Shown here piece by piece: positions 438-17,540 of a DNA stretch of 27,704 nt; position 1 is the stretch's first letter; the number at the start of each line of letters is the position of its first letter. Source of the stretch: Gammaproteobacteria bacterium (GTDB lineage: Bacteria; Pseudomonadota; Gammaproteobacteria; Magnimaribacterales; TMED112). The position numbers and the translations under genes are program-made. Location of the stretch: assembly GCA_042090165.1 (NCBI GenBank), contig JBELJV010000004.1, positions 1 through 27,704 of the forward strand, written 5' to 3'. The notes below the pieces were generated by a model. It saw nothing but the letters and a program-made list of their open reading frames with translations. It made no database searches and was not told the origin of the DNA.

Positions 438-2039
438 TTACCAATAAAAGCTGTAAATACCGCCTAATATTACCAAAATAGCTATTGATCCTGTATTAAA
501 TAATTTGGAGGTATTAAAATCTGCTCGGGTAAGATTAAATACCTTCTCATTAGTTGTTTGTGGAGATCTAAAATAGTTCACTAAAAATGCTGCCACAAAA
601 GATATGGCCATTTGATGCATAAATGGTTCAATGGCACTACCTGGATTATTTGCTACATATAGTTTCAAAATTACTCCCAATGCTAAGGCGACAAATGAGC
701 CTTCCAAAACAGATCTAGTTGTAGAGTTTTTAAGGAAAATAGCTGAGAGAAACACAAATAAAATTACTGGGCTAAATAAACCCATGTACTCCTGCACATA
801 CTGAAATGCTGAATCAAGGCTTCCCAAAAATATTGGCGCTACAATTACAGAAGTCACTAACCCAACAAATCCTGCAATCCTACCAATCTTTACAAGACTT
901 ACATCAGTAATATCTTGATCTTTTCGATAGATATCCATAGTAAAGATAGTGCTTACACTGTTTGAAAGAGATGCTAGCGATGAAACTATAGCTGCAACTA
1001 GCGCTGCAAAAGTAAGACCTTTTATCCCTTCTGGTAACAGATTTAACATTGAAGGATAAGCATTGCTTCTGTCTCCTGCCAGATTTATTGTTCCATTAGC
1101 TTCTAAAGCAACTGCTATCAAACCAGGTAATACAACCACGATTGGCATGAATATTTTTAAGAAGCCAGCAAACATCAATCCATTTTGAGCTTCATCTAAA
1201 CTCTTACCACCCAATGCTCGTTGAGTGATGTACTGATTTGTGCCCCAATAGTAAAAGTGAGCGATCCACATACCGCCAATAAGAACCCATATGCCAGGTA
1301 ATTTTATGTAATTAGCATACGCTTCTGGATCAACTTCTTTTGGAGCATAAGATAGAATTGCATCGAACTTTTCTGGGAATTCACTCTGAAGAATCATAAA
1401 ACCTTCAAATAATCCGTTACCTTCAGACAGTAAATCAAGACCTTTATAAGTGACAAACAAACCACCAAAGATTAGAAGAACAACTTGAATCACATCTGTA
1501 AACGCGACAGCTTTCAGTCCACCATATAGAGAGTATGCTAATGACAGACCACCCAACAGTATCATTGCTGGGATAAGTTCTAAGCCTGTCAGATTGTTTA
1601 CTGCTTTTGCGCCCAACCATAAGATAGTTGGCAAGATCACCATTACATACATAATGAGCATTAGCACTGCCAAAAGTGTGCTGACACTTCGATCATATCT
1701 TTGGGATAAAAGTTGTGGCATGGTGAAAACCTGCTGCTTTAGATAAACAGGTAATAAAAATTTTCCAACAACTATCAAAGCAACTGCAGCAGTCCATTCA
1801 TAAGTAGCTATTGCTATGCCCATTGCGTAAGCATCACCATTCATGCCAATTATTTGGTCTGCAGCAATATTGGCTGCTATGAGGGATGTTCCTATAGCCC
1901 ACCAAGGCAAAGACCTACCAGCTAGAAAATATTCTTCGGCGGTTTTCTTTTCCCCACTTTTTGTTTTTGAAACAAATGTAGCAATAGCAATCAAAACAAC
2001 TGCGTAAAGCCCAACAATTAAATAGTCCAAACTAGTCAT
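438..2039 (-). CDS. Sodium:solute symporter (SSS/SGLT-like sugar transporter)
   Basis: 533 aa, highly hydrophobic. YFLAGRSLPWW, ANIAADQ, YEW, YYWGTNQYITQR and AAIVSSLAS (Na2 site) resemble vSGLT. Confidence 0.93.
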   Translation of the reverse strand: MTSLDYLIVGLYAVVLIAIATFVSKTKSGEKKTAEEYFLAGRSLPWWAIGTSLIAANIAADQIIGMNGDAYAMGIAIATYEWTAAVALIVVGKFLLPVYLKQQVFTMPQLLSQRYDRSVSTLLAVLMLIMYVMVILPTILWLGAKAVNNLTGLELIPAMILLGGLSLAYSLYGGLKAVAFTDVIQVVLLIFGGLFVTYKGLDLLSEGNGLFEGFMILQSEFPEKFDAILSYAPKEVDPEAYANYIKLPGIWVLIGGMWIAHFYYWGTNQYITQRALGGKSLDEAQNGLMFAGFLKIFMPIVVVLPGLIAVALEANGTINLAGDRSNAYPSMLNLLPEGIKGLTFAALVAAIVSSLASLSNSVSTIFTMDIYRKDQDITDVSLVKIGRIAGFVGLVTSVIVAPIFLGSLDSAFQYVQEYMGLFSPVILFVFLSAIFLKNSTTRSVLEGSFVALALGVILKLYVANNPGSAIEPFMHQMAISFVAAFLVNYFRSPQTTNEKVFNLTRADFNTSKLFNTGSIAILVILGGIYSFYW

Positions 2040-2961
2040 GCACTCTCCTTAATTTTGAATAGTTTAAGTTTCCATACAATGGAGTATGTTCTTTGTGAAT
2101 CACGTACAAAGGTATCCTTTCCAATATATCTGAATGTGCATTTGACGGATGGTTTTTAAAACTTTTTTCCATAAGCTCAATGCAGCTCATTTTTGTTAAG
2201 CTTCGCATTAGACTACCAGCAAAATAAACTCCTCCTGTGGCCATAAAGGATAACGAAAGATCAGCTAAAATAGTTGAGAAAGAAATTACAAAAGTATCAA
2301 CAATTTCCTTTGAGTATTTGTCACTATCATAACTAGATAATATTTCTTCAGCAGTTTTTTGTCCGCCAGTTCTGGATTTGTAGATTTTTCTTAGGCCCGT
2401 GCCAGAGATGTAATCCTCTAATACCTTGAAATCCTCGGTACTAGTGATCTTAAAAGCATCAGCTAAATAAGGGTTGCGTGAACGCGTGTTGCCAAGTTCT
2501 GTTGCATGAATGTGCGGTTTTCCATCTACATAAGTTAATAATGAAAAGCCAAGGCCTGTACCAGGACCAATAGCAATTGAGGTTTGGCAACTTCTGATAT
2601 CACCATCTTTTACGGTTGAAATATCCTCATTGGTCATGAGTGGAAGTGAGTAGCCGATAGATTCCCAATCATTTAACAAGAAGCAGTTTTTGATTTTGAG
2701 CTCATTTGCTAACAGATCACCATCTAAGTCTAAACTTCTATTAGTCATGCTAATTTTATTATCTATTCTTGGGCCTGCAGCAGAGAAAATGATCTCACTG
2801 ATATTGTTATCATTGATAGAGTTATTTACGACCTTAAAGATATCCTCATTTGAGTTGACTCTTACTTTTGAAACATCTCTGATAGTTAGATTTTCATCAT
2901 TTCCGTACCCGACTCTTAGGTTTGTTCCACCTAAATCAAGCAAAAGTTTTTCTGATCTCAA
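2032..2961 (-). CDS. glk: Glucokinase (Glk family)
   Basis: DLGGTNLR phosphate loop, LLNDW, GPGTGLG, ISGTGL, GGVYFAGS. TTG start preceded by GGGG. Overlaps the symporter start by 8 nt. Confidence 0.88.
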   Translation of the reverse strand: MRSEKLLLDLGGTNLRVGYGNDENLTIRDVSKVRVNSNEDIFKVVNNSINDNNISEIIFSAAGPRIDNKISMTNRSLDLDGDLLANELKIKNCFLLNDWESIGYSLPLMTNEDISTVKDGDIRSCQTSIAIGPGTGLGFSLLTYVDGKPHIHATELGNTRSRNPYLADAFKITSTEDFKVLEDYISGTGLRKIYKSRTGGQKTAEEILSSYDSDKYSKEIVDTFVISFSTILADLSLSFMATGGVYFAGSLMRSLTKMSCIELMEKSFKNHPSNAHSDILERIPLYVIHKEHTPLYGNLNYSKLRRVHD

Positions 2962-2986
2962 AGTTTCCCCGCGATGTGTATAAATA

Positions 2987-2992
2987 ATTATA
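2987..2992 (-). promoter_or_regulatory. Candidate -10 box (TATAAT) for the glk-SSS-GH3 operon
   Basis: Perfect TATAAT on the minus strand 25 nt upstream of the glk TTG. No convincing -35. Confidence 0.5.
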
Positions 2993-3020
2993 GCTTGTAT
3001 AAAACTTTTTTTTAATTGAA

Positions 3021-3036
3021 AAAGACGATAGTCTTT
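3021..3036. promoter_or_regulatory. Palindrome AAAGAC-N4-GTCTTT in the glk/GH13 divergent spacer (candidate operator)
   Basis: Perfect 6-bp arms with a 4-nt spacer between two divergent sugar genes. Confidence 0.4.
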
Positions 3037-3048
3037 ACTTTATTGCAT

Positions 3049-4398
3049 ATGAACGATTGGAAGAACAAAACCATATACCAAATATATCCACGAAGTTTTT
3101 TTGATTCCTCCAATTCTGGAGTTGGTGACCTAAAAGGAATCACTTCAAAAGTTAAATACATAAGAGATCTTGGGGTTGATTATGTATGGATATCTCCCTT
3201 TTTTAAATCACCTCAAAAAGATTTTGGCTACGATATTTCAGACTATAGAAAAGTAGATGATATTTTTGGAAGCAATCACGACTTTTATAAATTGCTTGAA
3301 GTTTTTCATAAAAATGGTTTGAAAGTTATTACAGATTTAGTGTTAAGCCACACATCTGATGAACATCCATGGTTTGTTGAAAGCCAACAAAGCCAAAATT
3401 CAAAATACAGTGATTGGTATGTATGGGCTGATGGCCAAGAAGGCAGTCCACCAAATAATTGGTTATCAGTTTTTGGTGGAAGTGCTTGGCAATGGTGCAA
3501 GCATAGGAACCAATTTTATTTACATAATTTTTTAAGATCTCAAGCAGATCTAAATTTTCATAACACAGAAGTGCAAGCACAAATGCTGGATGAAATTAAA
3601 TTTTGGCTAGACGCTGGTGTGGATGGCTTTAGATTTGATGTAATTAATTTTCTATTTCATGATCATGAATTACGCGATAACCCTCCCAAAGACCCAAAGT
3701 TAGTTAGACCGCTTGGTTTCAATAAAGACAATCCCTATGGACTGCAAGAACATATTTATGACAATACAAGACCGGAAATGCTTCCTTACTTAGAGAAAAT
3801 TAGACGACTTCTTGATGAATATGATGCTATCTCACTTGGTGAAATTGTAGCTGAACACCCATTTTCAACCATCGGAGAATACTCAAATGAACGAAGGCTG
3901 CATATGGCATACTGTTTTGAGTTTCTGTCCGATGAGTTTAATTATGATTCTGTTGATGAGGTTGTAGAAAATTTTCATAAAAAATATCCACAGAGTTGGC
4001 CTTGTTGGTCTTTTAGTAATCACGACTCGTCACGCATTGCTTCACGGATAGCTCGTGATCCAAAAGAACTTATGGCTAAACTTCTGTCACTTAAAGGCAC
4101 TGTATGCATATATCAGGGTGAGGAATTAGGTCTAAAAGATACTGATATTGCCTTTGAAGATCTGCAAGATCCATTTGGTAAAAATTTTTGGCCTGACTTC
4201 AAAGGCAGAGATGGGTGTAGAACACCTATTCCTTGGGAAGATACCAAAATAAATTTTGGATTTTCAGAAGCAAAACCTTGGTTGCCCATGGATCCGTCGG
4301 CTAAAAACTTAACTGTAAACATTCAAGAACAAAAGAGTGATTCGATGCTTAATTTCACAAGACAAGTAATTGCTAAGAGAAAAGGTATCGCCACCTAA
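3049..4398 (+). CDS. GH13 alpha-glucosidase (oligo-1,6-glucosidase-like group), cytoplasmic, apparently lacking the C-terminal beta domain
   Basis: IYQIYPRSFFDS, QKDFGYDISDY, QADLN, GFRFD (nucleophile), GEIV (acid/base), SNHD, YQGEELG, RDGCRTP. ATG 3049 preferred over the track's TTG 3016 because homology begins at MNDW. Confidence 0.88.
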   Translation: MNDWKNKTIYQIYPRSFFDSSNSGVGDLKGITSKVKYIRDLGVDYVWISPFFKSPQKDFGYDISDYRKVDDIFGSNHDFYKLLEVFHKNGLKVITDLVLSHTSDEHPWFVESQQSQNSKYSDWYVWADGQEGSPPNNWLSVFGGSAWQWCKHRNQFYLHNFLRSQADLNFHNTEVQAQMLDEIKFWLDAGVDGFRFDVINFLFHDHELRDNPPKDPKLVRPLGFNKDNPYGLQEHIYDNTRPEMLPYLEKIRRLLDEYDAISLGEIVAEHPFSTIGEYSNERRLHMAYCFEFLSDEFNYDSVDEVVENFHKKYPQSWPCWSFSNHDSSRIASRIARDPKELMAKLLSLKGTVCIYQGEELGLKDTDIAFEDLQDPFGKNFWPDFKGRDGCRTPIPWEDTKINFGFSEAKPWLPMDPSAKNLTVNIQEQKSDSMLNFTRQVIAKRKGIAT

Positions 4399-4627
4399 CA
4401 GAATTACAGAATGGAAGTTGGGCCAGACATTCTGAGGTAAACAATGCAGATGGCGATATCAATTTTTTATTCTATTTCATTTTTTCAAAAAAACTAGTTT
4501 TTTCTTGTATATGTACGAGTTTTGTTAAACTTTTTATATTTTTTTTATTAAAAGCTATTTTTTTTATAGTTAAATTAATTAATTAGACTAATAAAAAAAA
4601 AATTTCTAATTGTCTATAATTCTGTTA
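4396..4627. repeat. AT-rich spacer bounded by 15-bp inverted repeats (14/15 identical)
   Basis: Left 4396-4410 TAACAGAATTACAGA. Right 4613-4627 reverse-complements to TAACAGAATTATAGA. Internal palindrome AAAAAACTAGTTTTTT at 4488-4503. Confidence 0.6.
4615..4620 (+). promoter_or_regulatory. -10 box TATAAT 6 nt before the thioesterase ATG (likely leaderless)
   Basis: TATAAT-tctgtt-ATG, no SD, upstream A-tract. Confidence 0.55.
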
Positions 4628-5052
4628 TGAGTATTTGGCACAACAATCAAAAATTTGATGACCTCTCAAAATTTTCAGTGAATCTAGATAAACATCTAGG
4701 TATTGAGTATCTTGAGATGGGCGATGATTACATAAAATCAAGAATGCCTGTTGATGAAAGAACAAAGCAACCTATGGGTTTGCTTCATGGTGGTGCATCT
4801 TGCGCATTGGCTGAGAGCACAGCAAGTATGGCTGCTTTTCTTTCCATAGATATGAGTGAAAAGGTTGCAGTGGGTTTGAGCCTGCATGCTAACCATCTTA
4901 AGTCTGTAACAGAAGGATATGTTTATGCAAAAGCGATGCCACTTCATATCGGTAGAACAACCTCTTTGTGGAATGTGGAAATCACTGATGATGATAACAA
5001 TATGGTTTGCCGAGTTACTTTTACTGCAATGTATAAAGGCATAAAAAAATGA
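4627..5052 (+). CDS. Hotdog-fold acyl-CoA thioesterase (PaaI/YdiI-MenI/EntH-like)
   Basis: 141 aa. QPMGLLHGGASCALAES, ANHLKS, HIGRTTSLW motifs. Confidence 0.88.
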   Translation: MSIWHNNQKFDDLSKFSVNLDKHLGIEYLEMGDDYIKSRMPVDERTKQPMGLLHGGASCALAESTASMAAFLSIDMSEKVAVGLSLHANHLKSVTEGYVYAKAMPLHIGRTTSLWNVEITDDDNNMVCRVTFTAMYKGIKK

Positions 5053-5801
5053 GAATTTTTGCCCTCCTCTTTTCATTGCTGTTTGTAAAATTCCTTGCTG
5101 CAGATTATCCAAGCAGGATTTTATTTATTGGGAACAGCTACCTCTATTACAACGACAGTTTGCATAATCACGTCAAAAGACTTCTTGAAGAAAAATATCC
5201 AAATATTGAACCAGAAATAAAATCAGCCACTATTGGAGGGTCTCGATTAAGTGACCATGCATTTTCCCATCTCATCAACCATGAAAATCACAGACTTGAT
5301 ATGCCATTTAACTACGTAGTTATGCAAGGTGGGAGTTATGAGGTGATCAACCAAGAAAATCAGAATCACTTTTGGCAAACTGTAAAAAAGAATGCCGAAC
5401 TTGCTCAAGCCAATGATATTGAGACAGCACTTTACATGACACATGCTTACCTAGCTATCGATGAGCGATATGAACCAAACTTAATTGAAAAAATTAAAGC
5501 TACCTATTATCAAGCAGGCAAGCTTTCAAATTCCAGAGTGATACCTGTGGGTATTGCTTATGAACTTGCTTATGAGAAAGACCCTAAAATTAAACTACAT
5601 CATCCAGATGGAACACATCCAAGCATGTTGGGAACTTACTTGGGAGCCTGTGTAGTTTTTGCGACTTTAACTGACTCTAATCCAGTTGGCCTTTACTATA
5701 ATTACCTTGATAAGGTGTCCGACAAAGATAGGATTTTCCTCCAACAAATAGCGTGGGCAGCTTATTTGGAAAATAAAAAAATAATCCAAGAAGTGGACTA
5801 A
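5049..5801 (+). CDS. Secreted SGNH/GDSL-like hydrolase (DUF4886-like)
   Basis: Signal peptide, ILFIGNSY (block I Ser), VVMQG, DGTHPS (Asp-x-x-His). ATGA overlap with the thioesterase stop. Confidence 0.75.
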   Translation: MRIFALLFSLLFVKFLAADYPSRILFIGNSYLYYNDSLHNHVKRLLEEKYPNIEPEIKSATIGGSRLSDHAFSHLINHENHRLDMPFNYVVMQGGSYEVINQENQNHFWQTVKKNAELAQANDIETALYMTHAYLAIDERYEPNLIEKIKATYYQAGKLSNSRVIPVGIAYELAYEKDPKIKLHHPDGTHPSMLGTYLGACVVFATLTDSNPVGLYYNYLDKVSDKDRIFLQQIAWAAYLENKKIIQEVD

Positions 5802-6356: not shown

Positions 6357-7724
6357 ATGAATACAAACAATTATGTTGGATGGGAAGAATGGGTGAGTTT
6401 ACCAGAATTAAACCTACCTGCACTTATTGCAAAAACTGATACAGGTGCAGAAACTTCTGCATTACATGCATTTAATATTCAAGTATTTGGTAAGGAAAAT
6501 AACCAAATGGTGAGGTTTGGAATTAACCCTATAGAAAGCGATGAGCGATACTCTGTTTTTTGTTCAGCCAAGCTAATCGATCAAAGAAATGTGACCTCAT
6601 CCAACGGCATCACTGAGCTTAGGTACGTAATTGAAACAGAACTTGAGATCGGTGAAGTAAAAAGAAAGGTTCCAATTACACTTACAAATAGAGAAAACAT
6701 GAAATATAAAATGATTATTGGTAGAAGTGCCCTCGATGGATTTCAAATTTCCCCTGATAAAAGCTTCTTGCAAGATGAGCTATCTTTCGACTTTTATAAA
6801 AAAGCAAAAAACTACAACTACCGAAGAGCCCTTAGAATTGGTATTTTAAGCCTTGAACCCAATAATTACTCAAATCTTAAAATCATTGAAGCAGCAGAGA
6901 AAAATGGTCATTTTTGTGAAATTTTAAACACCAAACGTTGTTATTTAAATATCGAATATGATAATCCTGAAATTCACTATGATGGAAAGATTCTACCCCA
7001 TTACGACGTTATTATCCCTCGAATTGGCTCATCCATCACAAGATATGGAATGGCAGTTGTAAGGCAGTTTGAGGCAATTGGTACTTTTTGTTTAAATTCT
7101 TCGTCCTCAATTGGCATGTCAAGAGATAAGTTAGCCGCTCACCAAACTCTGGCGTTACATAAAATCCCAATGCCAGATACTGCATTTGCAAACTCTCCAA
7201 AAGATACTAAACATATCGTTGATATGACTACTGGAGCACCTTTGGTTGTAAAGCTACTTGAAAGCTCACAAGGCAAAGGGGTTATTCTAGCCGAAACAAA
7301 AAAAGCTGCATCAAGTGTAATTAGTGCTTTTCAAAAACTTCATGCACCATTTATTGTTCAAGACTTTGTTAAAGATTCAAATGGTGCAGACTTAAGATTA
7401 TTTGTGATTGGAGGTAAAGTAGTTGCAAGCATGATGAGATACGCTTCTGATGGAGATTTTAGGTCAAATTTACATGCAGGCGGATCAGCGTCCAAAGTTA
7501 AAATTACAAAAGAGGAAAGGCAAATAGCCAAACAAGCAGCAAAAGCTATGGGATTGAACATTGCTGGTGTTGATATTCTAAGATCTGATGAAGGTCCAAA
7601 AGTACTTGAAGTTAACAGCTCACCAGGGCTACAAGGCATTGAAAACGTCAATAAAATTAACATTGCAGGTAAAATTATTGATTACATTGAAAGACGATTA
7701 GGCCTTGCCAAAAAGCAAAGTTAA
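6357..7724 (+). CDS. rimK: RimB-like retropepsin-type protease domain fused to RimK ATP-grasp glutamate ligase
   Basis: N-terminal ~150 aa: VGWEEWV, AKTDTGAETSALHA, SSNG, MIIGR. C-terminal ~300 aa: IIPRIG, SRDKL, PLVVKLLESSQGKGV, FRSNLHAGG, GVDILRS, EVNSSPGL. Confidence 0.9.
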   Translation: MNTNNYVGWEEWVSLPELNLPALIAKTDTGAETSALHAFNIQVFGKENNQMVRFGINPIESDERYSVFCSAKLIDQRNVTSSNGITELRYVIETELEIGEVKRKVPITLTNRENMKYKMIIGRSALDGFQISPDKSFLQDELSFDFYKKAKNYNYRRALRIGILSLEPNNYSNLKIIEAAEKNGHFCEILNTKRCYLNIEYDNPEIHYDGKILPHYDVIIPRIGSSITRYGMAVVRQFEAIGTFCLNSSSSIGMSRDKLAAHQTLALHKIPMPDTAFANSPKDTKHIVDMTTGAPLVVKLLESSQGKGVILAETKKAASSVISAFQKLHAPFIVQDFVKDSNGADLRLFVIGGKVVASMMRYASDGDFRSNLHAGGSASKVKITKEERQIAKQAAKAMGLNIAGVDILRSDEGPKVLEVNSSPGLQGIENVNKINIAGKIIDYIERRLGLAKKQS

Positions 7725-7965: not shown

Positions 7966-10900
7966 TTATAAGCTATATCTAAATCCAAAATATGTATATC
8001 TACTATCCCAGACTCTTGCATATGACTGAGCTGTGTAATGAGCACCTGGTACAGGCTCATTTTTACAGGTAGGACAAAATGGAGGATTTTGATCGCCTAC
8101 GTTATCCACACCCATGTACACACTTAGATTATCATTCAACTGATACCTAAGCTGTACATCTGTATAGACCATAGAGTCAACTGCATTAAGATGATATGCA
8201 TCTGGAGCTTGACCAACATCATCTCGAGCATCACCATAATAGTTGCTTTGCACTGATAGAAGCCATTCATTCAGTGTATAAACAGCGTTAAACTTAACAA
8301 TGTCTTCGTTGTATCCTACTTCACCTACGTAATCAAAAGGTGTAGATTCAGATGTTGTTTGGAAAACATGCTTATCTCTCAATGTGTAAATACCATTGAC
8401 TCTAAGTTCGCCAGGTACTTTTAAGTCAAAGTAACCAAGATCTCTAAAAGTATATGCAAAAGCTAAATCATAACCAGCTGTTTCATAGAATGACTGGTTG
8501 ATGCCATAAGAATACCAATATCTTAGTTTACCTGTTGGGAAACGCTCATGAGCACTACATTGAGCAACGTTTGGATAATTTTCAGAGTTATAACACTCGT
8601 TAATTAATCTTGAAGCAGATACAGAACCGATTACATCATCAATTTGAATGTTGTAATAATCTAAACTTAAAGCAAATTCTTCAAGATATGTTGGAGTATA
8701 TACAAAACCTACAGTTGTTGTTTCAGCAGTCTCTACATCTAAATTAGGGTTACCACCTATGAAACCAGAAATAGTCTGAATATCAGGCTGTGAGTAGTTG
8801 AAACCTGGAGTAGTTAAACCAGAATCTTGGTCAAACGAACCTTGTGCAGCAGTAGCAGCGATTCTAGAATCTGCTAGACAGTTAGCTATAACTATTGAGC
8901 TCATATTTGGCTCAGCGTCAGGGTTACCAACACCAGCACATGGATCAGCAATTGATGTGTAAGATTGAGCTTGACCAGAATACAACTCATCAATATTTGG
9001 CGCTCTGGTGGATTCAGCAACTACCGTTCTAAATCTAAAGTCATCAGTTACTGTCCAGTTAACTCCAAATTTTGATGCACCTACTCTTCCAGCTGTTGAA
9101 TAATCATCGGATCTATAAGCAGCTTCTAGTGTTAAATCTTGCACTAGGAAAACATCTGACACAAGTGGTACTAACACCTCGACATACGCGCCCTCAACGC
9201 TGTAAGAGCCGACCGTTGCAGGAGTTACATTTGAGCCATGAAGTCCAGCTTGTTGAAGTGAATCTGGAATATCAGCACCTGTTTCTGTTCTTCTCTCAAC
9301 ACCTGCAGCAAAACCTGCATCAAGTCCCAAAAGATTGAAGTCTCCGGTTACGTTAAAAGCCATAACCTCTTGTGTATTTTTACTTTGACGTAAAGTAATA
9401 GCTTTTACGTAATTTACAGCTTCATCTGATGCAGCCATCAAACCGAACAAATTAATAGGAACACAGCCCTGTGCTCTAGCAACGACGTCAGTACAAATTA
9501 CATTACCATTTGCATCTGTTGTTGCATTTAAGGCATTAGCCATATTAATTGCGTTGTAATTTTGACTGTACTGCATTCTGTCAGAAACACCGTATTGATA
9601 GTATGCATCCCATTCCATACCATTTGAGAATGTACCAACGGCACCTAATGCGGCCCTGAATGTTTCTCTTGTGTTGGACGAACCTCTGGTTCCGAACTCA
9701 AGAAGTCTTCTGATAAAAGGAACTTGAAGCTCATTACCATCAGCATCAACGTACATATTTGCTATTGGGTTGCCATCAGCATCAACTGCTTGAACACCGC
9801 CTTGGGCAGCTACAGCAGCATCTCTTATAGCAGCTGGCATGTACGGGTTAGAAATATTGTAACCAAATGTACCTAATCCACCGAATACATCTTCAGAACT
9901 AAATGGAACAGGTTCGAATTCTGATTGAGAGTCAACACTTGTATATGAGAATTCAGCAAACATTTCAGTTCCATTATCAAATTGGTAATTCGTTGCATTG
10001 AAAACACTATATCTTTCTAGTGGAACTTCAAGTGCTCTAAAATACGTTCTGTTAAAACCACAATTTGATGATCCACCTGCGTCAGACCAGCCAACAACTG
10101 TATCAGACTGCGTAACTGAGTAAGGACCTCTGCTTGAGCAGTCAAATGTTAACATTCCAGCAGAATCACTGTTATTTCCAGATACAAAGAATCTTCCTTG
10201 CGGAACATAAGAAGAATAGCCAGGGTCAGAGATCAAAGAATCATAAGGAGCTCCGAAATCTGCACCATAGTAATAACCATAGTAGAAAAGATCTCTGCCT
10301 GTATATCCTGTTCTGTCTCTAGCCATAACTCTGCCTTGCTCATCTGTTCTGATATTAAATACAGAGTTACCTTTACCATCTGCAAAGTTAGCACCAAAAG
10401 TCATGGAATATAATCTTGTCTCACCATCTCCTTTGTTGTACTTTCCGTCCATTGCCTCAAAAGTAAAACCTTCGAAATCATTTTTAAGGTTAATGTTAAT
10501 TACACCAGCTACAGCATCAGATCCGTAAACAGCAGATGCCCCACCAGTAATAACCTCTAAGTTAGCTATCAAATCAGTAGGTATTGAGTTCAAATCAACA
10601 GTTCCAGTGCCTGGGACACCACCTACCCATCTTCTACCATTAACAAGAGTAAGAGTTCTTCCATCCCCTAAACCTCTTAAGTCAACAGTTTGAAGACCAG
10701 AAGAACCAACAGTAAAGTTAGTGTTACCTCTTGATAACCCCTCTCCAGCCTGTGGTAATTCATTTAAAATATCATAAACGTTTATAGATCCAGTGAGCTC
10801 AATTTGATCTTCACCAAGAGTAATCATTGGTGTAGCTGAACTTAAATTATCTGCACGTTTAATCCTTGAACCAGTGATGACAATTTCTTCAACGCTATCA

Positions 10901-10998
10901 TCAACAGATTCGGAGCTATCAACCTCATCGCTTTGGGCATTCACCATGCCTACAGTAGATAGAGTCAATATGCTCAGTAAAAAGTATTTTTTAAACAT
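7966..10998 (-). CDS. TonB-dependent outer-membrane receptor 1 (1010 aa)
   Basis: Signal peptide, EEIVITGSRI TonB-box region, plug motifs DLRGLG, TLVNGRR, GGASAVYGSDAVAGVIN, C-terminal YFGFRYSL beta-strand. SD AAGGAGA at 11010-11004. Confidence 0.95.
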   Translation of the reverse strand: MFKKYFLLSILTLSTVGMVNAQSDEVDSSESVDDSVEEIVITGSRIKRADNLSSATPMITLGEDQIELTGSINVYDILNELPQAGEGLSRGNTNFTVGSSGLQTVDLRGLGDGRTLTLVNGRRWVGGVPGTGTVDLNSIPTDLIANLEVITGGASAVYGSDAVAGVININLKNDFEGFTFEAMDGKYNKGDGETRLYSMTFGANFADGKGNSVFNIRTDEQGRVMARDRTGYTGRDLFYYGYYYGADFGAPYDSLISDPGYSSYVPQGRFFVSGNNSDSAGMLTFDCSSRGPYSVTQSDTVVGWSDAGGSSNCGFNRTYFRALEVPLERYSVFNATNYQFDNGTEMFAEFSYTSVDSQSEFEPVPFSSEDVFGGLGTFGYNISNPYMPAAIRDAAVAAQGGVQAVDADGNPIANMYVDADGNELQVPFIRRLLEFGTRGSSNTRETFRAALGAVGTFSNGMEWDAYYQYGVSDRMQYSQNYNAINMANALNATTDANGNVICTDVVARAQGCVPINLFGLMAASDEAVNYVKAITLRQSKNTQEVMAFNVTGDFNLLGLDAGFAAGVERRTETGADIPDSLQQAGLHGSNVTPATVGSYSVEGAYVEVLVPLVSDVFLVQDLTLEAAYRSDDYSTAGRVGASKFGVNWTVTDDFRFRTVVAESTRAPNIDELYSGQAQSYTSIADPCAGVGNPDAEPNMSSIVIANCLADSRIAATAAQGSFDQDSGLTTPGFNYSQPDIQTISGFIGGNPNLDVETAETTTVGFVYTPTYLEEFALSLDYYNIQIDDVIGSVSASRLINECYNSENYPNVAQCSAHERFPTGKLRYWYSYGINQSFYETAGYDLAFAYTFRDLGYFDLKVPGELRVNGIYTLRDKHVFQTTSESTPFDYVGEVGYNEDIVKFNAVYTLNEWLLSVQSNYYGDARDDVGQAPDAYHLNAVDSMVYTDVQLRYQLNDNLSVYMGVDNVGDQNPPFCPTCKNEPVPGAHYTAQSYARVWDSRYTYFGFRYSL

Positions 10999-11392: not shown

Positions 11393-14329
11393 ATGTCCAA
11401 GTTAAAATACTTACTTTTATTAGTGTGTGCTGCTATCTCTGTAAATGCACAAGAGACAAACAGCAGCAATGATGTAGAAGAAATAGTGGTCACTGGTACC
11501 CAAATTAAAGGGGCCAGAATTAACGAAGCATTACCTGTAACAGTTATTACGGCTGATGATATTGATGACAGAGGCATTAACTCTGGTGATGAACTTCTTG
11601 CAACCTTAACCGAACAAGGCGTTAACCAGTTCAACGACGTTGGTTCCAACGGCGGTGGTGTTAACGCATCAAGAGGTGATGTCGGTGCTTTTGATATTAG
11701 GTCAATAGGTACAGGCAATTCACTTGTTCTTCTCAATGGTAGAAGAATGATTGCCACGCCTTCTTACCAAACAGAAGAAGTTGGCGGCAGCTTTGTTCCT
11801 GTTGCTACAGTGAACTCAAACGTCATTCCGGTTTCTCTTGTAGATCGAGTTGAAATCTTAAGAGACGGTGCTGGTGCTATTTATGGTACTGATGCTGTAG
11901 CTGGTGTCGTTAACACCGTTCTTGATGTCGACTATGTTGGTTTTGAAATGAGAGGAAGATTTCAAAACTGGCAGCACTTCGACAGAGATGATCACAAATT
12001 CTCTATGAAATGGGGTGAAAACTTCGGCAACACCAATGTTTCAATGTTTTTTAGTTTCTATGACAGAGACAGAGTAGCAGCAGCAGAAGACGAAATCATG
12101 GGTAGATGTGATTATCGTGATTTAGTCCCAGAACAATTTGCAAATGATGCATTCTACCGATGTTCATCAGTATCAGCATGGGCTCAATTTGATATGGCTG
12201 GAACAGCCCCATATACAGCAAGTGACGGTGAATTTACAATCAGAGCTACTGGAGATTCTCGATGTGCTCTCGACCTAGGCAATGGTACTTGTGCATCCCC
12301 ATCTACAAGTAGATACAGACATAACTGGAATGGGCAAAGAGATGTTCTTGGTGACGTGCAAAGACATAATATGTTCTTTTTCCTAAATCATGATTTAGGA
12401 GATGGACGAGAAGTATTCGCAGAAATTGGACAATATAGAAGCAAATACAATGGTAACAGACATTCGTCTTCATCATTTTCCTCTGTGAGACATGTTGTTC
12501 CAGCAACAAACCCATACAACTTCACTCGCCGAGCATTGCTGATCGATTTTTACAGGTTTGTAGATGCAGGTCCAAGAATTGTTGACAACGATAAGGAAAC
12601 AAACAGGTTGCTTTATGGTATGCGTGGTGATCTTAATTCAGGATGGTCATGGGAATCAGCTGTTTCTTACTCATGGGCAGAAGCATTTGATGTAACGCAT
12701 AATAGAGTATCAAATACAATAGTAGATGGCTTACTGCATGCTAGCGGGCCAAACGCTTACAACCCATTCAATGGTGGTGGTGTTTATGTATCTCCTACTG
12801 TTTCGCATAACCCCGTGGACTTAACTGATGGTGGTATTGCACCAGCTTTAGTGGATGTTTATAGAAAGAATGAAAGAACTATGACAACTTTTGACTTAAA
12901 AATGTCAAAAGCTGACTGGTGGGAAACTAATGCTGGGTTTATTGGTTTGGCATTGGGTCTAGAAACAAGACGAGATACTTTTTTTGATGATAGAGACCCA
13001 AGACTTGATGGCACCATTGTGTTCACAGAAAGAAAAACATCTGGTGCGCTTTCAACACGTGCAATCGATACATATCCATATGTATCTGATATTGTTAATA
13101 GCTCACCTACTCCTGATAGCGGGGGGAGCAGATTGGTTAACTCTCTCTACATAGAATTCGATGTTCCGGTAGTAAGTCCTGAAATGAATGTTCCTTTGGT
13201 TGAGCAGCTTGACCTTCAAGTAGCTTGGAGGAAAGAATCATACTCTGATTTCGAGGGTACAAGTGTACCAAGAGTTGCATTCGGTTGGCGAGTTAATGAC
13301 ATCTTGAAACTAAGAGGTTCTTTCCAAGAAACGTTCAGAGCACCAAACCTAATTACGATCAATGAAAGCATGGTCGTAAGAAGCAATACAAGAATTGATG
13401 CAGCTCTTAGATATGCAAATGGTCTTGGCATTAATTCAAATTCTGAATACTCTGTTCAAAGACAAGCATCAGGCAGTAGTAACTTAGAAGCCGAAACTTC
13501 TGACAACACCACTGTTGGTTTTGTTTTAGAACCTACAGATAACATAACTTTGACGTACGATGTATGGAGTATTGAGTCAGAAAATACTATTGGTTTGTTT
13601 GGCGAAGAAAACCATATGCTTCTGGATCTCTATCTAAGATTAGAACAGAATAATATAAATGATTGTTCTTCTGTAGTTGGAAATCCTGCTGTGTTGAGAC
13701 AAGCAGCTGATAATCCAGATTCATTTTTGGCTGCAGGACTTTGTCCAATAGGTCTAGCAGAAAGAGTCGAGGATAACTATGCTAATCTGAACAATAGAAC
13801 TATTGAAGGTTGGGACAGTGGGTTCTACTACAATACTGAGACACCACTTGGTAAATTGTCTTTCAAGCATCAAATTTCCCAGCTTACAATGAAAGAGCAA
13901 GAATATGGACCTACACTTGCTCTACTTGATGCGGAAATGAATAGCGGAAATCTTCCGATGACAGCTCTGCTTGGGTTTGGAGATATTCTTGCTGTTAATG
14001 GCGCACCAAAAAGAAAAACTTATACATCTCTAAGGCTTAGAAATGGTGATTGGGCCTTAGGCATAAACCAAAGGTCAAGAAGCACTGTGTACGAAGACAG
14101 AACTATTGAAGATGCCGGAGAAATGTGGGCTGTGGTTCCATTTAAACCAAGTAATGTATATGTGGACTACTACACAGAAACACCAAATACTGATCTTAGA
14201 ATTAGGCTAGGTGTAAATAACTGGTATGATAGAAGAGCTCCTCTTGCATCATCACGAATGGGTTATTTTGAAGACTTAGATAACAATTTAAGAAGAAACT
14301 TCTATCTTGACCTAAGGTTCACATACTAA
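11393..14329 (+). CDS. TonB-dependent outer-membrane receptor 2 (978 aa)
   Basis: Signal peptide, EEIVVTGTQI, LVLLNGRR, RVEILRDGAGAIYGTDAVAGVVN, C-terminal FYLDLRFTY. SD AGGGAGGA at 11377-11384. Confidence 0.95.
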   Translation: MSKLKYLLLLVCAAISVNAQETNSSNDVEEIVVTGTQIKGARINEALPVTVITADDIDDRGINSGDELLATLTEQGVNQFNDVGSNGGGVNASRGDVGAFDIRSIGTGNSLVLLNGRRMIATPSYQTEEVGGSFVPVATVNSNVIPVSLVDRVEILRDGAGAIYGTDAVAGVVNTVLDVDYVGFEMRGRFQNWQHFDRDDHKFSMKWGENFGNTNVSMFFSFYDRDRVAAAEDEIMGRCDYRDLVPEQFANDAFYRCSSVSAWAQFDMAGTAPYTASDGEFTIRATGDSRCALDLGNGTCASPSTSRYRHNWNGQRDVLGDVQRHNMFFFLNHDLGDGREVFAEIGQYRSKYNGNRHSSSSFSSVRHVVPATNPYNFTRRALLIDFYRFVDAGPRIVDNDKETNRLLYGMRGDLNSGWSWESAVSYSWAEAFDVTHNRVSNTIVDGLLHASGPNAYNPFNGGGVYVSPTVSHNPVDLTDGGIAPALVDVYRKNERTMTTFDLKMSKADWWETNAGFIGLALGLETRRDTFFDDRDPRLDGTIVFTERKTSGALSTRAIDTYPYVSDIVNSSPTPDSGGSRLVNSLYIEFDVPVVSPEMNVPLVEQLDLQVAWRKESYSDFEGTSVPRVAFGWRVNDILKLRGSFQETFRAPNLITINESMVVRSNTRIDAALRYANGLGINSNSEYSVQRQASGSSNLEAETSDNTTVGFVLEPTDNITLTYDVWSIESENTIGLFGEENHMLLDLYLRLEQNNINDCSSVVGNPAVLRQAADNPDSFLAAGLCPIGLAERVEDNYANLNNRTIEGWDSGFYYNTETPLGKLSFKHQISQLTMKEQEYGPTLALLDAEMNSGNLPMTALLGFGDILAVNGAPKRKTYTSLRLRNGDWALGINQRSRSTVYEDRTIEDAGEMWAVVPFKPSNVYVDYYTETPNTDLRIRLGVNNWYDRRAPLASSRMGYFEDLDNNLRRNFYLDLRFTY

Positions 14330-14341
14330 ATCTCATTACTT

Positions 14342-14371
14342 AAGGCGCGGTTAATTTCGCGCCTTTTTTTT
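14342..14371 (+). terminator. Intrinsic terminator between TBDR2 and the DASS gene
   Basis: AAGGCGCG-gttaattt-CGCGCCTT followed by a T-run ending 2 nt before the DASS ATG. Confidence 0.88.
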
Positions 14372-14373
14372 GA

Positions 14374-15843
14374 ATGAAAGACCGTACCAACCTAAAATCA
14401 ATCGGCTTTGTTGCTGGTATGTTTTTCTTTGCTCTGACATTATTTACAACTTCTCCAGCTGGTCTCACTATTGAGGCTTGGCATGTAGCAGGAGTTGTCA
14501 TCATGATGGCTTTTTGGTGGGCAACTGAGGCAATTCCACTTCCTGTTACTGCGCTACTTCCACTTGCTTTATTTCCTCTTCTTCAAGTTTATGGACCTTA
14601 TGTTGATGGTTTTACACCAAAAGAAGCATTTACTATTGCCGCTAAACCTTATGCACACCCAAACATATATTTATTTCTTGGTGGTTTTATTCTTGCACTG
14701 GCTATTGAAAAGGTAAATCTTCATAAGCGACTTGCATTAAAAATGCTATTAATGGTTGGCACTAATGCTAAATATTTGATAGGTGGTTTCATGTTAATCA
14801 GTGCCTTGATTAGTATGTGGATTATGAATACATCGACTACATTAATGCTTCTTCCAATTGCTTTGGCGATTGCTGCAGTAGTCAAAGACACCACAACATC
14901 ATTAGATGAACAACAATTCAATAACTTTCAAACATCGTTATTGCTAGGAGTAGCATATGCAGCGACCATAGGTGGCATGGCAACCATTATAGGAACTGGC
15001 CCCAATCTACTGGTAAAAAGTTTTATTGAAGATGAAGGTGTAAAAGTGTTTTTCTTTGATTGGATGTTATTAGCTACACCTATCTCGGCAGTTATGTTGT
15101 TCATTGGTTGGTTATTGTTAACCAATGTTATCTTTCCATTAAAAATAGAAGGTTCTGCTGAAACAACAAAGTCACTTGAGCAAATGTATGCATCACTTGG
15201 CAAAGTATCTACCGATGAACGAAGAGTCTTTTTTATTTTTGTAATAACGGCATTGGCTTGGATGTCCAGCAAAGCCTTGGTTCTAATTCCCTTCCTAGAG
15301 GGTTTAACAGATTATGCTATTGCTGTGTTTGCTGCATTAACTATTTTCATCACACGTTCTGAGAAAGGTACTGGACTGATAGATTGGAAAACAACAAAAG
15401 AACTGCCTTGGGGAATACTTTTATTATTCGGTGGTGGGTTATCAATGGCTGGAGCAATTAAAAGCTCAATGCTCGGTGACTGGATTGGGTCCTTTTTCAC
15501 TTCTGACATAAATGCCATTTTATTAATATTTATCATAGTGACTTTAATAGTTTTCTTAACAGAGCTGACAAGCAACCAAGCCACTACAGCAACATTTGTA
15601 CCAATTATGATTGCTATTGCTGGTTCAGATCTAGGTTTAATTTCACAACTTTCAATTCCTGTTGCACTTGCCGCTAGTTGTGCATTTATGTTGCCTGTAG
15701 CAACACCTCCAAATGCCATAGTTTACGGATCGGAAAAATTTACTATAGCTCAAATGATGAGAGCTGGCTTCTACCTGAATGTGGTGGGTATTATTGTTGT
15801 CACAATATTCTCAGCGTACGTATTACCATTAATATTTAACTGA
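14374..15843 (+). CDS. DASS/SLC13 family Na+-coupled anion symporter
   Basis: 489 aa membrane protein. WWATEAIPLPVTALLP, LFLGGF, NLHKRLAL, SMWIMNT, GTGPN, LLLFGGGLS, TELTSNQ, FMLPVATPPNAIVYG. Confidence 0.92.
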   Translation: MKDRTNLKSIGFVAGMFFFALTLFTTSPAGLTIEAWHVAGVVIMMAFWWATEAIPLPVTALLPLALFPLLQVYGPYVDGFTPKEAFTIAAKPYAHPNIYLFLGGFILALAIEKVNLHKRLALKMLLMVGTNAKYLIGGFMLISALISMWIMNTSTTLMLLPIALAIAAVVKDTTTSLDEQQFNNFQTSLLLGVAYAATIGGMATIIGTGPNLLVKSFIEDEGVKVFFFDWMLLATPISAVMLFIGWLLLTNVIFPLKIEGSAETTKSLEQMYASLGKVSTDERRVFFIFVITALAWMSSKALVLIPFLEGLTDYAIAVFAALTIFITRSEKGTGLIDWKTTKELPWGILLLFGGGLSMAGAIKSSMLGDWIGSFFTSDINAILLIFIIVTLIVFLTELTSNQATTATFVPIMIAIAGSDLGLISQLSIPVALAASCAFMLPVATPPNAIVYGSEKFTIAQMMRAGFYLNVVGIIVVTIFSAYVLPLIFN

Positions 15844-17540
15844 TGAGAATTTTTTTAACACTATTATTTGCTTCGATGGTTCATGCTCAAGCAAGCTTGA
15901 TAGATTATGATCATCCATATCATTCAACATACACCAGTAAAGGGATAGTGGTTTCACAGAACTATCTTTCCTCTGATATAGGTGTTGAAATACTTGATCA
16001 AGGTGGCAATGCTATAGATGCAGCAGTTGCCGTTGGTTTCTCGCTTGCAGCCACATTGCCAAGGGCAGGAAATATTGGTGGCGGTGGTTTTATGCAGATT
16101 TATATTGAAAAAGATAAGACAATCTTATCGATAGATTTCCGCTCCACTGCTCCGGCACTAGCAACAGGTGAATTCTACCAAGAACTTAAATCACAAGATG
16201 ATGATGTTACAAGAAAAGGTTACAAGGCAATTGCCGTACCAGGAACAATTGCTGGCCTTTATAAAGCTCATGAACTTTATGGATCACTACCAATGGAAAC
16301 ATTGCTTCAACCAACCATTGATCTTTTAACTGAAGGTGTCCCTATGACACAAGATCTGTACCACGCTATTAACATTGGAAAATATATTAGTGATGATCCT
16401 GAATCGCATAAAATTTATAAAAAGAATTTAGAGCCTAATGTACCATTATTCATTGAGGACCTAAAACAAACATTTATAAAACTTCAAAAATTTGGGCAGG
16501 ATGTTTTTTATCGTGGAGAAATAGCTGATCTAATAGAGAAGGAGATGCTCAAAAACAATGGTTTGATAAGAAAATCCGATTTAGAAAACTATAAAGTCAA
16601 TATCACCCAACCCATCAAAACAACATATAGAGATAAGCAGATTTTCGCCATAGGAGCCCCATCTGGTGGCGGAGTGGTAATACTCACAGCTTTGAATGTG
16701 TTGGAAAACTTTCAATTGAGTGGGCTGGCTCCCAATTCAGCGAGAACATATCACCTTCTTTCAGAGGCATTAAAGTATGGTCATCACAATAGATCAAAAT
16801 TTGTTGGCGATCCAGGGTATTTCAATGTTCCCTACGATATCTTGCTGTCAAAAAAACTGGCAAAAGAAAAGGCAAAGAAAATTAGTCTAACTTCTGCAAC
16901 AAATCCTAAAACTATCAATAAAAATGGAGATCGAATTAACTCTACTTATGAAGAATCAAAAGATACAACTCATTATTCTGTAGTGGATAAAGATGGTAAT
17001 GGCGTATCTGTTACCTACACTCTTGGTTATTCCTTTGGTTCTGGTGTAACAATTCCAGGCACAGGAATGCTTACTAATAACCAAATGAATAATTTTGCCC
17101 ATAGCTATGGGTTGATTGATTCTTATTTTAGAAGTTCCTCTCCAGCGAATAAGTTAGAACCAAGTAAACGACCAATGAGCACAATGACACCAGTCATGGT
17201 TTTCGACAGGGAAGGCAGGTTAGAACTAATAACAGGATCACCAGGAGGATCACAAATACCAGGCGTTGTTTTTCAAGTTCTTGTAAATTACATTGATTTT
17301 GATTTGGACATTGGTGAAGCCTCCATGCTTCCACGTATTCATCAAGACTCTCAAAGCACTGAGCTTAATTTTGAAAAGCATATGAGCAGAGATACACAAC
17401 GTATACTAGAGTCTTATGGTCATAACTTAGAGTTATCGGATACTATGGGAAGTACTCAAAGCATAGCTATCATTGATGGTGTAAGGTTTGGGTACGCTGA
17501 TCTAAGAAGACCAAACGCAAGAGTTAGTGTTCAGAAATAG
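15843..17540 (+). CDS. ggt: Periplasmic gamma-glutamyltransferase-family Ntn hydrolase with an atypical acyl pocket
   Basis: Signal peptide, GGNAIDAAVA, GNIGGGGF, IDFR, autocleavage site D/TTHYS (Thr375), GSPGGSQI. TGATG overlap with the DASS stop. Confidence 0.9.
   Translation: MRIFLTLLFASMVHAQASLIDYDHPYHSTYTSKGIVVSQNYLSSDIGVEILDQGGNAIDAAVAVGFSLAATLPRAGNIGGGGFMQIYIEKDKTILSIDFRSTAPALATGEFYQELKSQDDDVTRKGYKAIAVPGTIAGLYKAHELYGSLPMETLLQPTIDLLTEGVPMTQDLYHAINIGKYISDDPESHKIYKKNLEPNVPLFIEDLKQTFIKLQKFGQDVFYRGEIADLIEKEMLKNNGLIRKSDLENYKVNITQPIKTTYRDKQIFAIGAPSGGGVVILTALNVLENFQLSGLAPNSARTYHLLSEALKYGHHNRSKFVGDPGYFNVPYDILLSKKLAKEKAKKISLTSATNPKTINKNGDRINSTYEESKDTTHYSVVDKDGNGVSVTYTLGYSFGSGVTIPGTGMLTNNQMNNFAHSYGLIDSYFRSSSPANKLEPSKRPMSTMTPVMVFDREGRLELITGSPGGSQIPGVVFQVLVNYIDFDLDIGEASMLPRIHQDSQSTELNFEKHMSRDTQRILESYGHNLELSDTMGSTQSIAIIDGVRFGYADLRRPNARVSVQK

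Follow-up and report, generated by a model that had tools for sequence, protein, structure and literature searches.

A gene encoding a homologue of gamma-glutamyltransferase (GGT) was analysed in a stretch of 27,704 nucleotides (hereafter the window) of contig JBELJV010000004.1, which belongs to a gammaproteobacterial genome assembly (GCA_042090165.1). Among named genomes, those closest to it are single-cell and metagenome assemblies of SAR86. The GGT-like gene (15843-17540, forward strand) belongs to a clade in which, as judged from residue alignment, the set of residues that binds the donor alpha-ammonium group is dismantled (in the window protein, Gly replaces N411, Ser replaces E115 and Asn replaces both D432 and D433, in E. 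coli numbering) while the catalytic and alpha-carboxylate residues stay in place. The product is probably a periplasmic hydrolase for gamma-glutamyl-type amides in which the alpha-nitrogen is blocked or absent, and would be fed by a dedicated TonB-dependent receptor encoded in the same cassette.

The gene contains an open reading frame of 565 amino acids and was assigned to the GGT family (MEROPS T03) of N-terminal nucleophile (Ntn) hydrolases using PF01019, TIGR00066 and a predicted structural model. PF01019 matches the protein from end to end (477.6 bits, residues 49-557, profile positions 2-511 of 512). The score against TIGR00066, the general GGT equivalog, exceeds the cut-off (453 bits against 357.85) and that against NF007187, the E. 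coli-type model, falls far below it (435.7 bits against 990), although the scores of these two profiles give no special weight to pocket residues. The initial annotation had warned that the gene was likely to be labelled an ordinary ggt, and this is fair, given that the TIGR00066 cut-off is passed and that the named members of the clade (Pseudoteredinibacter isoporae, Steroidobacteraceae metagenome-assembled genomes (MAGs) and Phenylobacterium) are annotated simply as gamma-glutamyltransferase. The N-terminus, MRIFLTLLFASMVHAQA followed by Ser, resembles a Sec signal peptide such as that of periplasmic E. coli GGT when the translation is read by eye; residues 1-17 (15843-15893, forward strand) comprise a hydrophobic core and an A-x-A site, with AQA preceding Ser18, suggesting a periplasmic enzyme. 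An AlphaFold (AF2) model built from an 84-sequence alignment has a mean pLDDT of 93.8, and is poorly resolved only in the signal peptide, in the pro-region preceding Thr375 and in the lid loop (pLDDT 65 over residues 421-430). The best fold match of the model is E. coli GGT (TM-score 0.92, 38% identity), and its large subunit can be overlaid on the structure of the E. coli glutamate complex with a root-mean-square deviation of 1.5 Å; the residue equivalences used below are therefore structurally sound.

To map the active site, the protein was aligned by phmmer (HMMER) to the E. coli GGT precursor 2E0W (E-value 2.8e-112) and the codons were read directly. An alignment made by eye had been described as free of gaps from Thr375 onward, and the phmmer alignment reproduces this from Thr375 to about residue 455. 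Thr375 (16965-16967), the equivalent of the catalytic and autoprocessing nucleophile T391, is invariant in all alignments. Thr393 (17019-17021), the equivalent of T409 and the second threonine of the Thr-Thr dyad, and Gly468-Gly469 (17244-17249, in SPGGS), the equivalents of the oxyanion-hole glycines G483-G484, are likewise invariant across the clade. With the predicted fold, the nucleophile, the dyad and the oxyanion hole all found, the protein is taken to be a member of the GGT family, and the residues required for autocatalytic cleavage into large and small subunits are present, so that such processing would be expected. The alpha-carboxylate site is also retained: Arg100 of Arg100-Ser101 (16140-16145, IDFRS in place of IDFRE) corresponds to R114, and Ser446-Thr447 (17178-17183, KRPMSTM in place of KRPLSSM) corresponds to S462-S463, the second residue being a conservative change that marks the clade.

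The alpha-amino site is altered. In the crystal structure of the E. coli glutamate complex, as quoted in PMC6769717, the alpha-carboxylate is bound by R114, S462 and S463 and the alpha-amino group by N411, Q430 and D433, the latter as the initial annotation had stated. N411 is represented by Gly395 (codon GGT, 17025-17027, TYTLG in place of TYTLN), and Q430-M431-D432-D433 by Gln414-Met415-Asn416-Asn417 (17082-17093, NNQMNN in place of NNQMDD), in which both aspartates are neutralised: Asn416 (17088-17090) replaces D432 and Asn417 (codon AAT, 17091-17093) replaces D433. Only one of the three alpha-amino ligands of a bona fide GGT (N411, Q/E430 and D433) is thus kept, namely Gln414. The equivalences first read by eye for Gly395, Asn417, PMSTM, the Arg of IDFR and the Gly-Gly loop are all recovered, with Gly and Asn rather than acidic residues at the N411 and D433 positions, and three features are added to them: Asn416 in place of D432, Ser101 in place of E115, and retention of the lid-loop tyrosine Tyr428 (17124-17126), the equivalent of Y444. 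N411 is also the partner of this tyrosine in the E. coli enzyme, where the two form the N411-Y444 gate.

A search of 5.8 billion proteins recovered more than 100 homologues from marine metagenomes with 72-99% identity. The signature is identical at 13 tabulated positions in 118 of 120 close homologues, and in the remaining two G395 and N417 are unchanged and the deviation is confined to one or two other positions each; the pattern is therefore not a chance or sequencing oddity. Wider sampling was performed by an exhaustive HMMER search of 50%-identity cluster representatives, in which the nearest representatives (E-values of 1e-168 to about 1e-100) possess Gly or Ser at 411, N433 and T463, whereas those farther away possess the canonical N...E/Q-x-D-D...S-S pattern. 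On a maximum-likelihood tree of 91 full-length sequences, all N433-type sequences fall in one clade with an SH-aLRT (Shimodaira-Hasegawa-like approximate likelihood ratio test) support of 99. This clade of 15 sequences, which includes the window protein and one member with Ile433, is nested among canonical GGTs and has a canonical sister. Its members come from SAR86, Cellvibrionales, Steroidobacteraceae, Caulobacterales and Sphingomonadales, and so span two proteobacterial classes.

The clade is characterized by Gly or Ser at 411, Q430, N433, T463 and replacement of E115 by Ser or Gly. Among the representatives compared, position 115 is Glu in 99% of those outside the clade, D433 is conserved in 97%, N411 in 93% and Asp at position 432 in 88%; inside the clade, N433 is present in 12 of 13 representatives, position 411 is Gly or Ser in all 13, position 115 is Ser or Gly and position 432 is Arg, Asn, Lys or Ala, with Arg or Lys in many members. 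The sites that separate the clade, defined as at least 70% conserved outside it with that residue almost never found inside it, are E115, N411, E/Q430, D432, D433, the lid-loop residues P441/N442, L461, S463, H516, Q517 and P520, together with window residues 123, 128 and 166 of the large subunit and 438, which have no E. coli mapping. The mapped sites take in the donor pocket and the adjoining lid loop and amount to a net loss of three to four negative charges. The tree and the purifying selection described below support the view that remodelling of the alpha-amino site is a selected feature of the whole clade. A published analysis of GGT subfamilies from 2015 (PMC4568574) makes no mention of D433, N411 or cephalosporin acylases.

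Several members depart from this general pattern. In a sub-branch comprising P0128, P0135 and P0319/P0138, the alpha-carboxylate arginine (R114 in E. coli) is also replaced, by Tyr, and the substrate of this sub-branch has probably diverged further; the gene for P0135 lies near an IcmW-like gene and has no receptor nearby. Steroidobacteraceae members such as P0299 (859 amino acids; L011/L012 8001-10580) carry a C-terminal extension of ~270 amino acids. JGI (Joint Genome Institute) labels fragments of this cluster as poly(3-hydroxybutyrate) depolymerase, suggesting that an esterase-like domain has been joined to a GGT-like amidase. P0121 (1129 amino acids), the 50%-cluster representative with the highest score, matches the query twice and is apparently a tandem double-GGT fusion; the stretch of it aligned by MAFFT to the query has an E411/G432/D433-type signature.

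The window genome, an assembly of ~0.9 Mb in 90 contigs that is 88% complete, also encodes, on contig C71, a GGT in which the motifs TLN, NNEMDD and PLSSM are canonical. A third hit, at the edge of contig C74 (L003 3-239 and 223-1623), consists of a slightly different GGT-like C-terminus together with gltX, and probably reflects a mixture of strains in the MAG, not a genuine duplication. Five other genomes that carry the N433-type gene possess exactly two PF01019 genes each, and the second gene is of the D433 type in four of them; in the fifth, a SAR86 genome, it is a divergent paralogue. The ratio of non-synonymous to synonymous substitution (dN/dS) of the GGT-like gene is 0.067 and 0.084 relative to two relatives with 95-96% protein identity, and that of the adjacent gltX is 0.12-0.13. 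The GGT-like gene is under strong purifying selection.

This level of constraint bears on the idea that the protein is a catalytically dead or unprocessed paralogue that serves as a periplasmic binding or chaperone-like protein for the cargo of the receptor. Such a paralogue has a precedent in Bgh1 of Helicobacter bilis, which carries the same D-to-N and S-to-T changes, is inactive and has not been seen to be processed (PMC3279353). Bgh1 has, however, also lost an oxyanion glycine (G473S) and the lid-loop tyrosine, whereas Thr375, Thr393 and Gly468-Gly469 are invariant here. With these residues conserved and a dN/dS of about 0.07, a pseudogene or dead enzyme was rejected as an explanation, and a binding or chaperone-like role is highly improbable.

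The decisive evidence from the gene context is linkage to a receptor. The GGT-like gene is the last of a three-gene cassette that begins with a TonB-dependent receptor of 978 amino acids with plug and barrel domains (11393-14329, forward strand). Receptors encoded beside the N433-type GGTs of Pseudoteredinibacter (locus L010), Steroidobacteraceae (L011), Phenylobacterium (L013) and a 52%-identity SAR86 relative (L007) were compared with the window receptor, and all show 32-41% identity to it over ~1000 amino acids; for the other TonB-dependent receptor of the window, identity to the cassette receptor is only 24%. A scan that took one genome for each species yielded 80 GGT loci, of which nine have the clade signature (three SAR86 loci, Caulobacter, Sphingorhabdus, a Sphingomonadaceae genome, Phenylobacterium, Sphingomonas and one unclassified Pseudomonadota MAG) and 68 are of the D433 type. 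An orthologous receptor of ~1000 amino acids lies within 8 kb of the gene at eight of the nine clade loci but at none of the 68 D433-type loci (Fisher p = 4e-10, a value that ignores kinship). Across all the loci compared, the orthologous receptor was found beside the gene in SAR86, Pseudoteredinibacter, Steroidobacteraceae, Phenylobacterium, Caulobacter, Sphingorhabdus and Sphingomonas, and the pair occurs in at least five orders and in several arrangements, with the receptor gene upstream, downstream, divergent or separated by other genes. A literature search found no paper on a TonB receptor paired with a GGT in Caulobacter. In Pseudoteredinibacter isoporae, the genes for the N433-type GGT, the orthologous receptor and a canonical GGT follow one another on the same strand (L010 8001-14891), and both GGT paralogues are therefore linked to the same receptor in that genome.

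The linkage is difficult to reconcile with an ordinary gamma-glutamyl hydrolase, that is, a hydrolysis-only GGT that acts on glutathione, glutamine or gamma-glutamyl peptides, for example in sulfur or glutamate scavenging, and whose main difference from the canonical paralogue is the lack of transpeptidation. Such an enzyme would be in keeping with the TIGR00066 score, with the retention of Arg100, Gln414, Ser446 and Thr447, with the SAR86 literature, which assigns ggt genes to the conversion of glutathione to cysteine (PMC11582366), and with the behaviour of E. coli GGT carrying D433N, in which transpeptidation is abolished, 82% of hydrolytic activity is kept and glutaryl-7-aminocephalosporanic acid (GL-7-ACA) acylase activity is gained (PMC8062742), the last of these as the initial annotation had stated. 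It would leave unexplained, however, why four residues around the alpha-amino site changed together and became fixed in a clade spanning two proteobacterial classes, why a canonical paralogue is retained alongside even in an assembly of this small size, and why a large dedicated receptor is linked to the gene that is seen at no canonical GGT locus. An ordinary hydrolase is therefore distinctly unlikely.

The middle gene of the cassette (14374-15843, forward strand) encodes a Na+-coupled anion symporter of the DASS (SLC13-type) family (divalent anion:Na+ symporter; PF00939, 237.7 bits; TIGR00785, 283 bits), whose best solved relatives are NaDC1, NaCT and VcINDY. Its TGA stop codon shares one base with the ATG of the GGT-like gene (TGATG, 15841-15845), an arrangement of translational coupling, and a DASS gene lies beside the GGT-like gene only in SAR86 loci. 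No third partner common to the lineages was found when the neighbours in L010, L011, L013, L019, L028 and L039 were searched against all loci by tblastn; the sole repeat was an M14 peptidase at two Caulobacterales loci. The variable neighbours consist of amide or peptide enzymes and of anion or MFS (major facilitator superfamily) carriers. They are Amidohydro_3 and peptidase M14 in Phenylobacterium; FecR, MFS and M14 in Caulobacter; and a TIGR01891-type M20 amidohydrolase and a flavin mononucleotide-dependent dehydrogenase in Sphingomonas. In Sphingorhabdus, an operon runs from the receptor through LysR, a DadA-like D-amino-acid dehydrogenase and the GGT-like gene to a pyridoxal phosphate enzyme resembling D-Ser dehydratase, with Amidohydro_3 divergent from it, and one SAR86 MAG possesses a beta-lactamase-fold protein and a canonical GGT directly upstream.

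Taken together, the residues and the linkage suggest the following scheme. The protein would be a self-processing Ntn amidohydrolase of GGT fold located in the periplasm, with its catalytic machinery and its donor alpha-carboxylate site (Arg100, Ser446 and Thr447) retained and the acidic, hydrogen-bonding cluster for a protonated alpha-amino group lost. Loss of that cluster would mean that the enzyme is not the glutathione-type GGT of the cell, a role left to the paralogue on C71. The substrate would cross the outer membrane through the receptor encoded upstream, its amide would be split in the periplasm and the resulting anion (an N-acyl-glutamate-like compound or another dicarboxylate) would, in SAR86, be imported by the translationally coupled symporter. 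Autoprocessing, the periplasmic location, the loss of transpeptidation and the direction of substrate flow are all inferred.

The initial annotation had proposed a natural amidase for acyl groups lacking an alpha-amino group. The part of this proposal that concerns a free alpha-amino group stands, since the alpha-ammonium set is dismantled across the clade and a canonical paralogue is present; the restriction to amino-less acyl groups such as glutaryl is less likely, given that the replacements, with their smaller side chains, would open the pocket and that an N-acylated donor fits at least as well. An amidase for amino-less dicarboxylyl amides would cleave glutaryl-, 2-oxoglutaryl- or succinyl-type amides, much as class IV cephalosporin acylases act on GL-7-ACA, and the DASS carrier would import the freed dicarboxylate. 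The GL-7-ACA acylase activity gained by E. coli D433N, the Asn found at the same position in class IV cephalosporin acylases (PMC8062742), the hydrolysis of many glutaric-acid conjugates by an engineered D-to-N GGT (PMC11421214) and the translational coupling of the DASS gene in SAR86 are all in its favour. The best engineered glutaryl acylase (E423Y/E442Q/D445N), however, places a bulky Tyr at the 411-equivalent position (PMC8062742), whereas the Gly or Ser at 411 and Ser or Gly at 115 of the clade would enlarge the pocket instead. The DASS gene is absent from the clade loci outside SAR86, and the window protein has only 32-33% identity with acylases of the ACY1 type. An N-acyl-glutamate product is also a dicarboxylate without a positive charge, and so the DASS linkage does not discriminate between an N-blocked and an amino-less donor. 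An abundant glutaryl amide of natural origin whose uptake would require a TonB receptor is not known, and a preference for amino-less donors is on the whole unlikely.

N-acylated gamma-glutamyl residues occur in peptidoglycan stem peptides (L-Ala-gamma-D-Glu-mDAP, where mDAP is meso-diaminopimelate), in poly- and oligo-gamma-glutamate and in folyl- and p-aminobenzoyl-polyglutamates. The pocket pattern of the clade combines Gly or Ser at 411, Ser or Gly at 115, frequent Arg or Lys at 432 and loss of the N411-Y444 gate, which follows from the replacement of Asn411 and from the lack of clade-wide conservation of the lid-loop tyrosine. An open pocket of this kind would suit a donor that carries a substituent on the alpha-nitrogen. 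Neighbours acting on N-acyl amino acids and D-amino acids, each of them a single observation, lean towards the same type of donor. That the donor is an N-blocked, N-acylated gamma-glutamyl group is a reasonable but tentative proposal, and the preferred substrate class is N-blocked gamma-(D/L)-glutamyl peptides, such as peptidoglycan stem peptides, oligo-gamma-glutamates and folate or p-aminobenzoyl-polyglutamate fragments. In its most specific form, the proposal is that the clade constitutes an unrecognised family of receptor-coupled periplasmic endo-gamma-glutamyl amidases that harvest N-blocked gamma-(D)-glutamyl peptides and whose N-acyl-glutamate product is imported through DASS or MFS carriers. 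This version is speculative and somewhat doubtful, but, if true, it would reveal a new path by which dissolved organic nitrogen is recycled, carried by Proteobacteria that are abundant in the sea and in fresh water (SAR86, Caulobacterales, Sphingomonadales and others).

Several observations weigh against a receptor-fed hydrolase for donors with a blocked or absent alpha-nitrogen. E. coli GGT with D433N still hydrolyses gamma-glutamyl-p-nitroanilide well (PMC8062742), so residual or even primary ordinary gamma-glutamyl activity is possible, and Gln414, Arg100 and Ser446 remain compatible with a glutamyl skeleton. H. bilis Bgh1 shows no detectable GGT or GL-7-ACA activity and is unprocessed in vitro (PMC3279353); because it is inactive on both types of substrate, the D-to-N switch by itself does not predict acylase activity. 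The association with the receptor may partly reflect shared descent of the gene pair, since the statistic ignores phylogeny, and two clade members, one at L020 and P0135 in L015, have no receptor nearby. Contig depth, on which the transcript data below depend, is a poor measure of expression.

Contigs from four seawater metatranscriptome runs of two studies cover the cassette at 95% identity or more. Word depth on these contigs, a crude measure taken from RNA libraries that can carry DNA, is about 120-500 for the cassette receptor, 27-105 for the DASS gene, 6-36 for the GGT-like gene and 3-20 for gltX and dnaQ. From one gene to the next, depth can change by a factor of about 1000, and the signal is therefore more likely to come from RNA than from carried-over DNA. 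A terminator-like hairpin with a 9-bp stem (six GC pairs) followed by a T run (14342-14372, forward strand) lies within the 44-nucleotide gap between the receptor and DASS genes and ends at the DASS start. Given that depth steps down at this point, from receptor to DASS to GGT, the hairpin is likely to be an attenuator between the receptor and the DASS-GGT pair.

Further features of the window lie outside this argument. The second TonB-dependent receptor (7966-10998, reverse strand, 1010 amino acids) is divergent from the cassette and has a word depth of 1400-5500; in four seawater metatranscriptome assemblies, its depth is 10-1000 times that of its neighbours. The GGT-like gene and gltX are convergent and share 17 nucleotides at their 3' ends (17524-17540), and this overlap is kept in the relatives at L004, L007, L107 and L109. 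A gene at 6357-7724 (forward strand) encodes a RimK ATP-grasp ligase with an N-terminal Zn_protease/RimB-like domain, and the same fusion is present in the relative at L109.

SAR86 is a very abundant ocean bacterium, and a conserved receptor-carrier-enzyme cassette of 6 kb that is also found in RNA libraries from seawater is probably directed at a dissolved compound that is common. Genome surveys, including SAR86 genomics, count every ggt as glutathione-to-cysteine scavenging (PMC11582366), and metabolic reconstructions based on ggt annotation are likely to be wrong for the GGT-like paralogue because it probably does something else. The clade also constitutes a natural experiment on the D433N "acylase switch", which so far has been represented by engineered GGTs, a few acylases and one natural Helicobacter paralogue without activity; it provides dozens of diverse, evidently functional sequences with additional pocket changes. 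Engineered GGT variants are in development for the release of cargo from glutaric-acid conjugates (PMC11421214), and clade enzymes may serve as glutaryl- or N-acyl-gamma-glutamyl amidases. The strict pairing with the receptor opens a way to test what an uncharacterised group of TonB-dependent transporters of ~1000 amino acids is specific for.

Among known systems, the closest is E. coli Ggt (P18956; PDB 2DBU/2DBX/2E0W), with which the window protein shares its fold, length, signal peptide, Thr nucleophile, Thr-Thr dyad, Gly-Gly oxyanion hole, alpha-carboxylate site (Arg and Ser-Ser/Thr) and a lid loop with Tyr. It differs from E. coli Ggt at N411 (Gly), D432/D433 (Asn/Asn), E115 (Ser), S463 (Thr) and H516/Q517/P520, and in the linkage of its gene to a TonB receptor and a DASS carrier. 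The engineered acylases (E. coli D433N; B. subtilis E423Y/E442Q/D445N; and the PnGGT D406N-based 'GGTxe') resemble it in possessing Asn at the 433-equivalent and Gln at the 430-equivalent position and in having lost alpha-ammonium binding (PMC8062742, PMC11421214). The window enzyme, in contrast, is natural and known from its sequence, has Gly rather than Tyr at the 411-equivalent position and carries extra changes at 115 and 432.

The class IV cephalosporin acylases (ACY 1, Pseudomonas sp. SE83 P15557, and V22 Q05053) are also GGT-fold proenzymes with Asn at the D433 position (PMC8062742) and match the model with a TM-score of 0.88. An alignment with them had been suggested in the initial annotation, but kinship was rejected, as identity to P15557 and Q05053 falls below the 38% found for E. 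coli GGT; these acylases are probably a separate lineage and are not known to be linked to a receptor. H. bilis Bgh1 is, like the window protein, a natural paralogue beside a functional GGT, with D422N and S452T corresponding to D433N and S463T. It differs in its oxyanion hole and its lid loop (Y433H), residues that the window protein keeps, in being apparently unprocessed and inactive (PMC3279353), and in its organism and gene context. CapD (poly-gamma-D-glutamate), HpxW (oxamate amidohydrolase, 5HFT) and LmbA (6J3A) provide precedents for recruitment of the GGT fold to N-blocked gamma-glutamyl polymers and to unrelated amides. Membership of these three families was rejected on matches far weaker than that to E. 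coli GGT, with phmmer E-values for the large and small chains of 1e-29 and 2e-8 for CapD and 3e-22 and 6e-6 for HpxW, and of 3e-9 for LmbA. The fold, the catalytic mechanism, the D433N switch, the class IV acylases and one inactive natural paralogue are thus already known. As far as the literature covered shows, what appears to be new is a monophyletic and widespread proteobacterial subfamily with coordinated remodelling of the alpha-amino site, which coexists with canonical GGT and shows near-obligate pairing with one orthologous family of TonB-dependent receptors.

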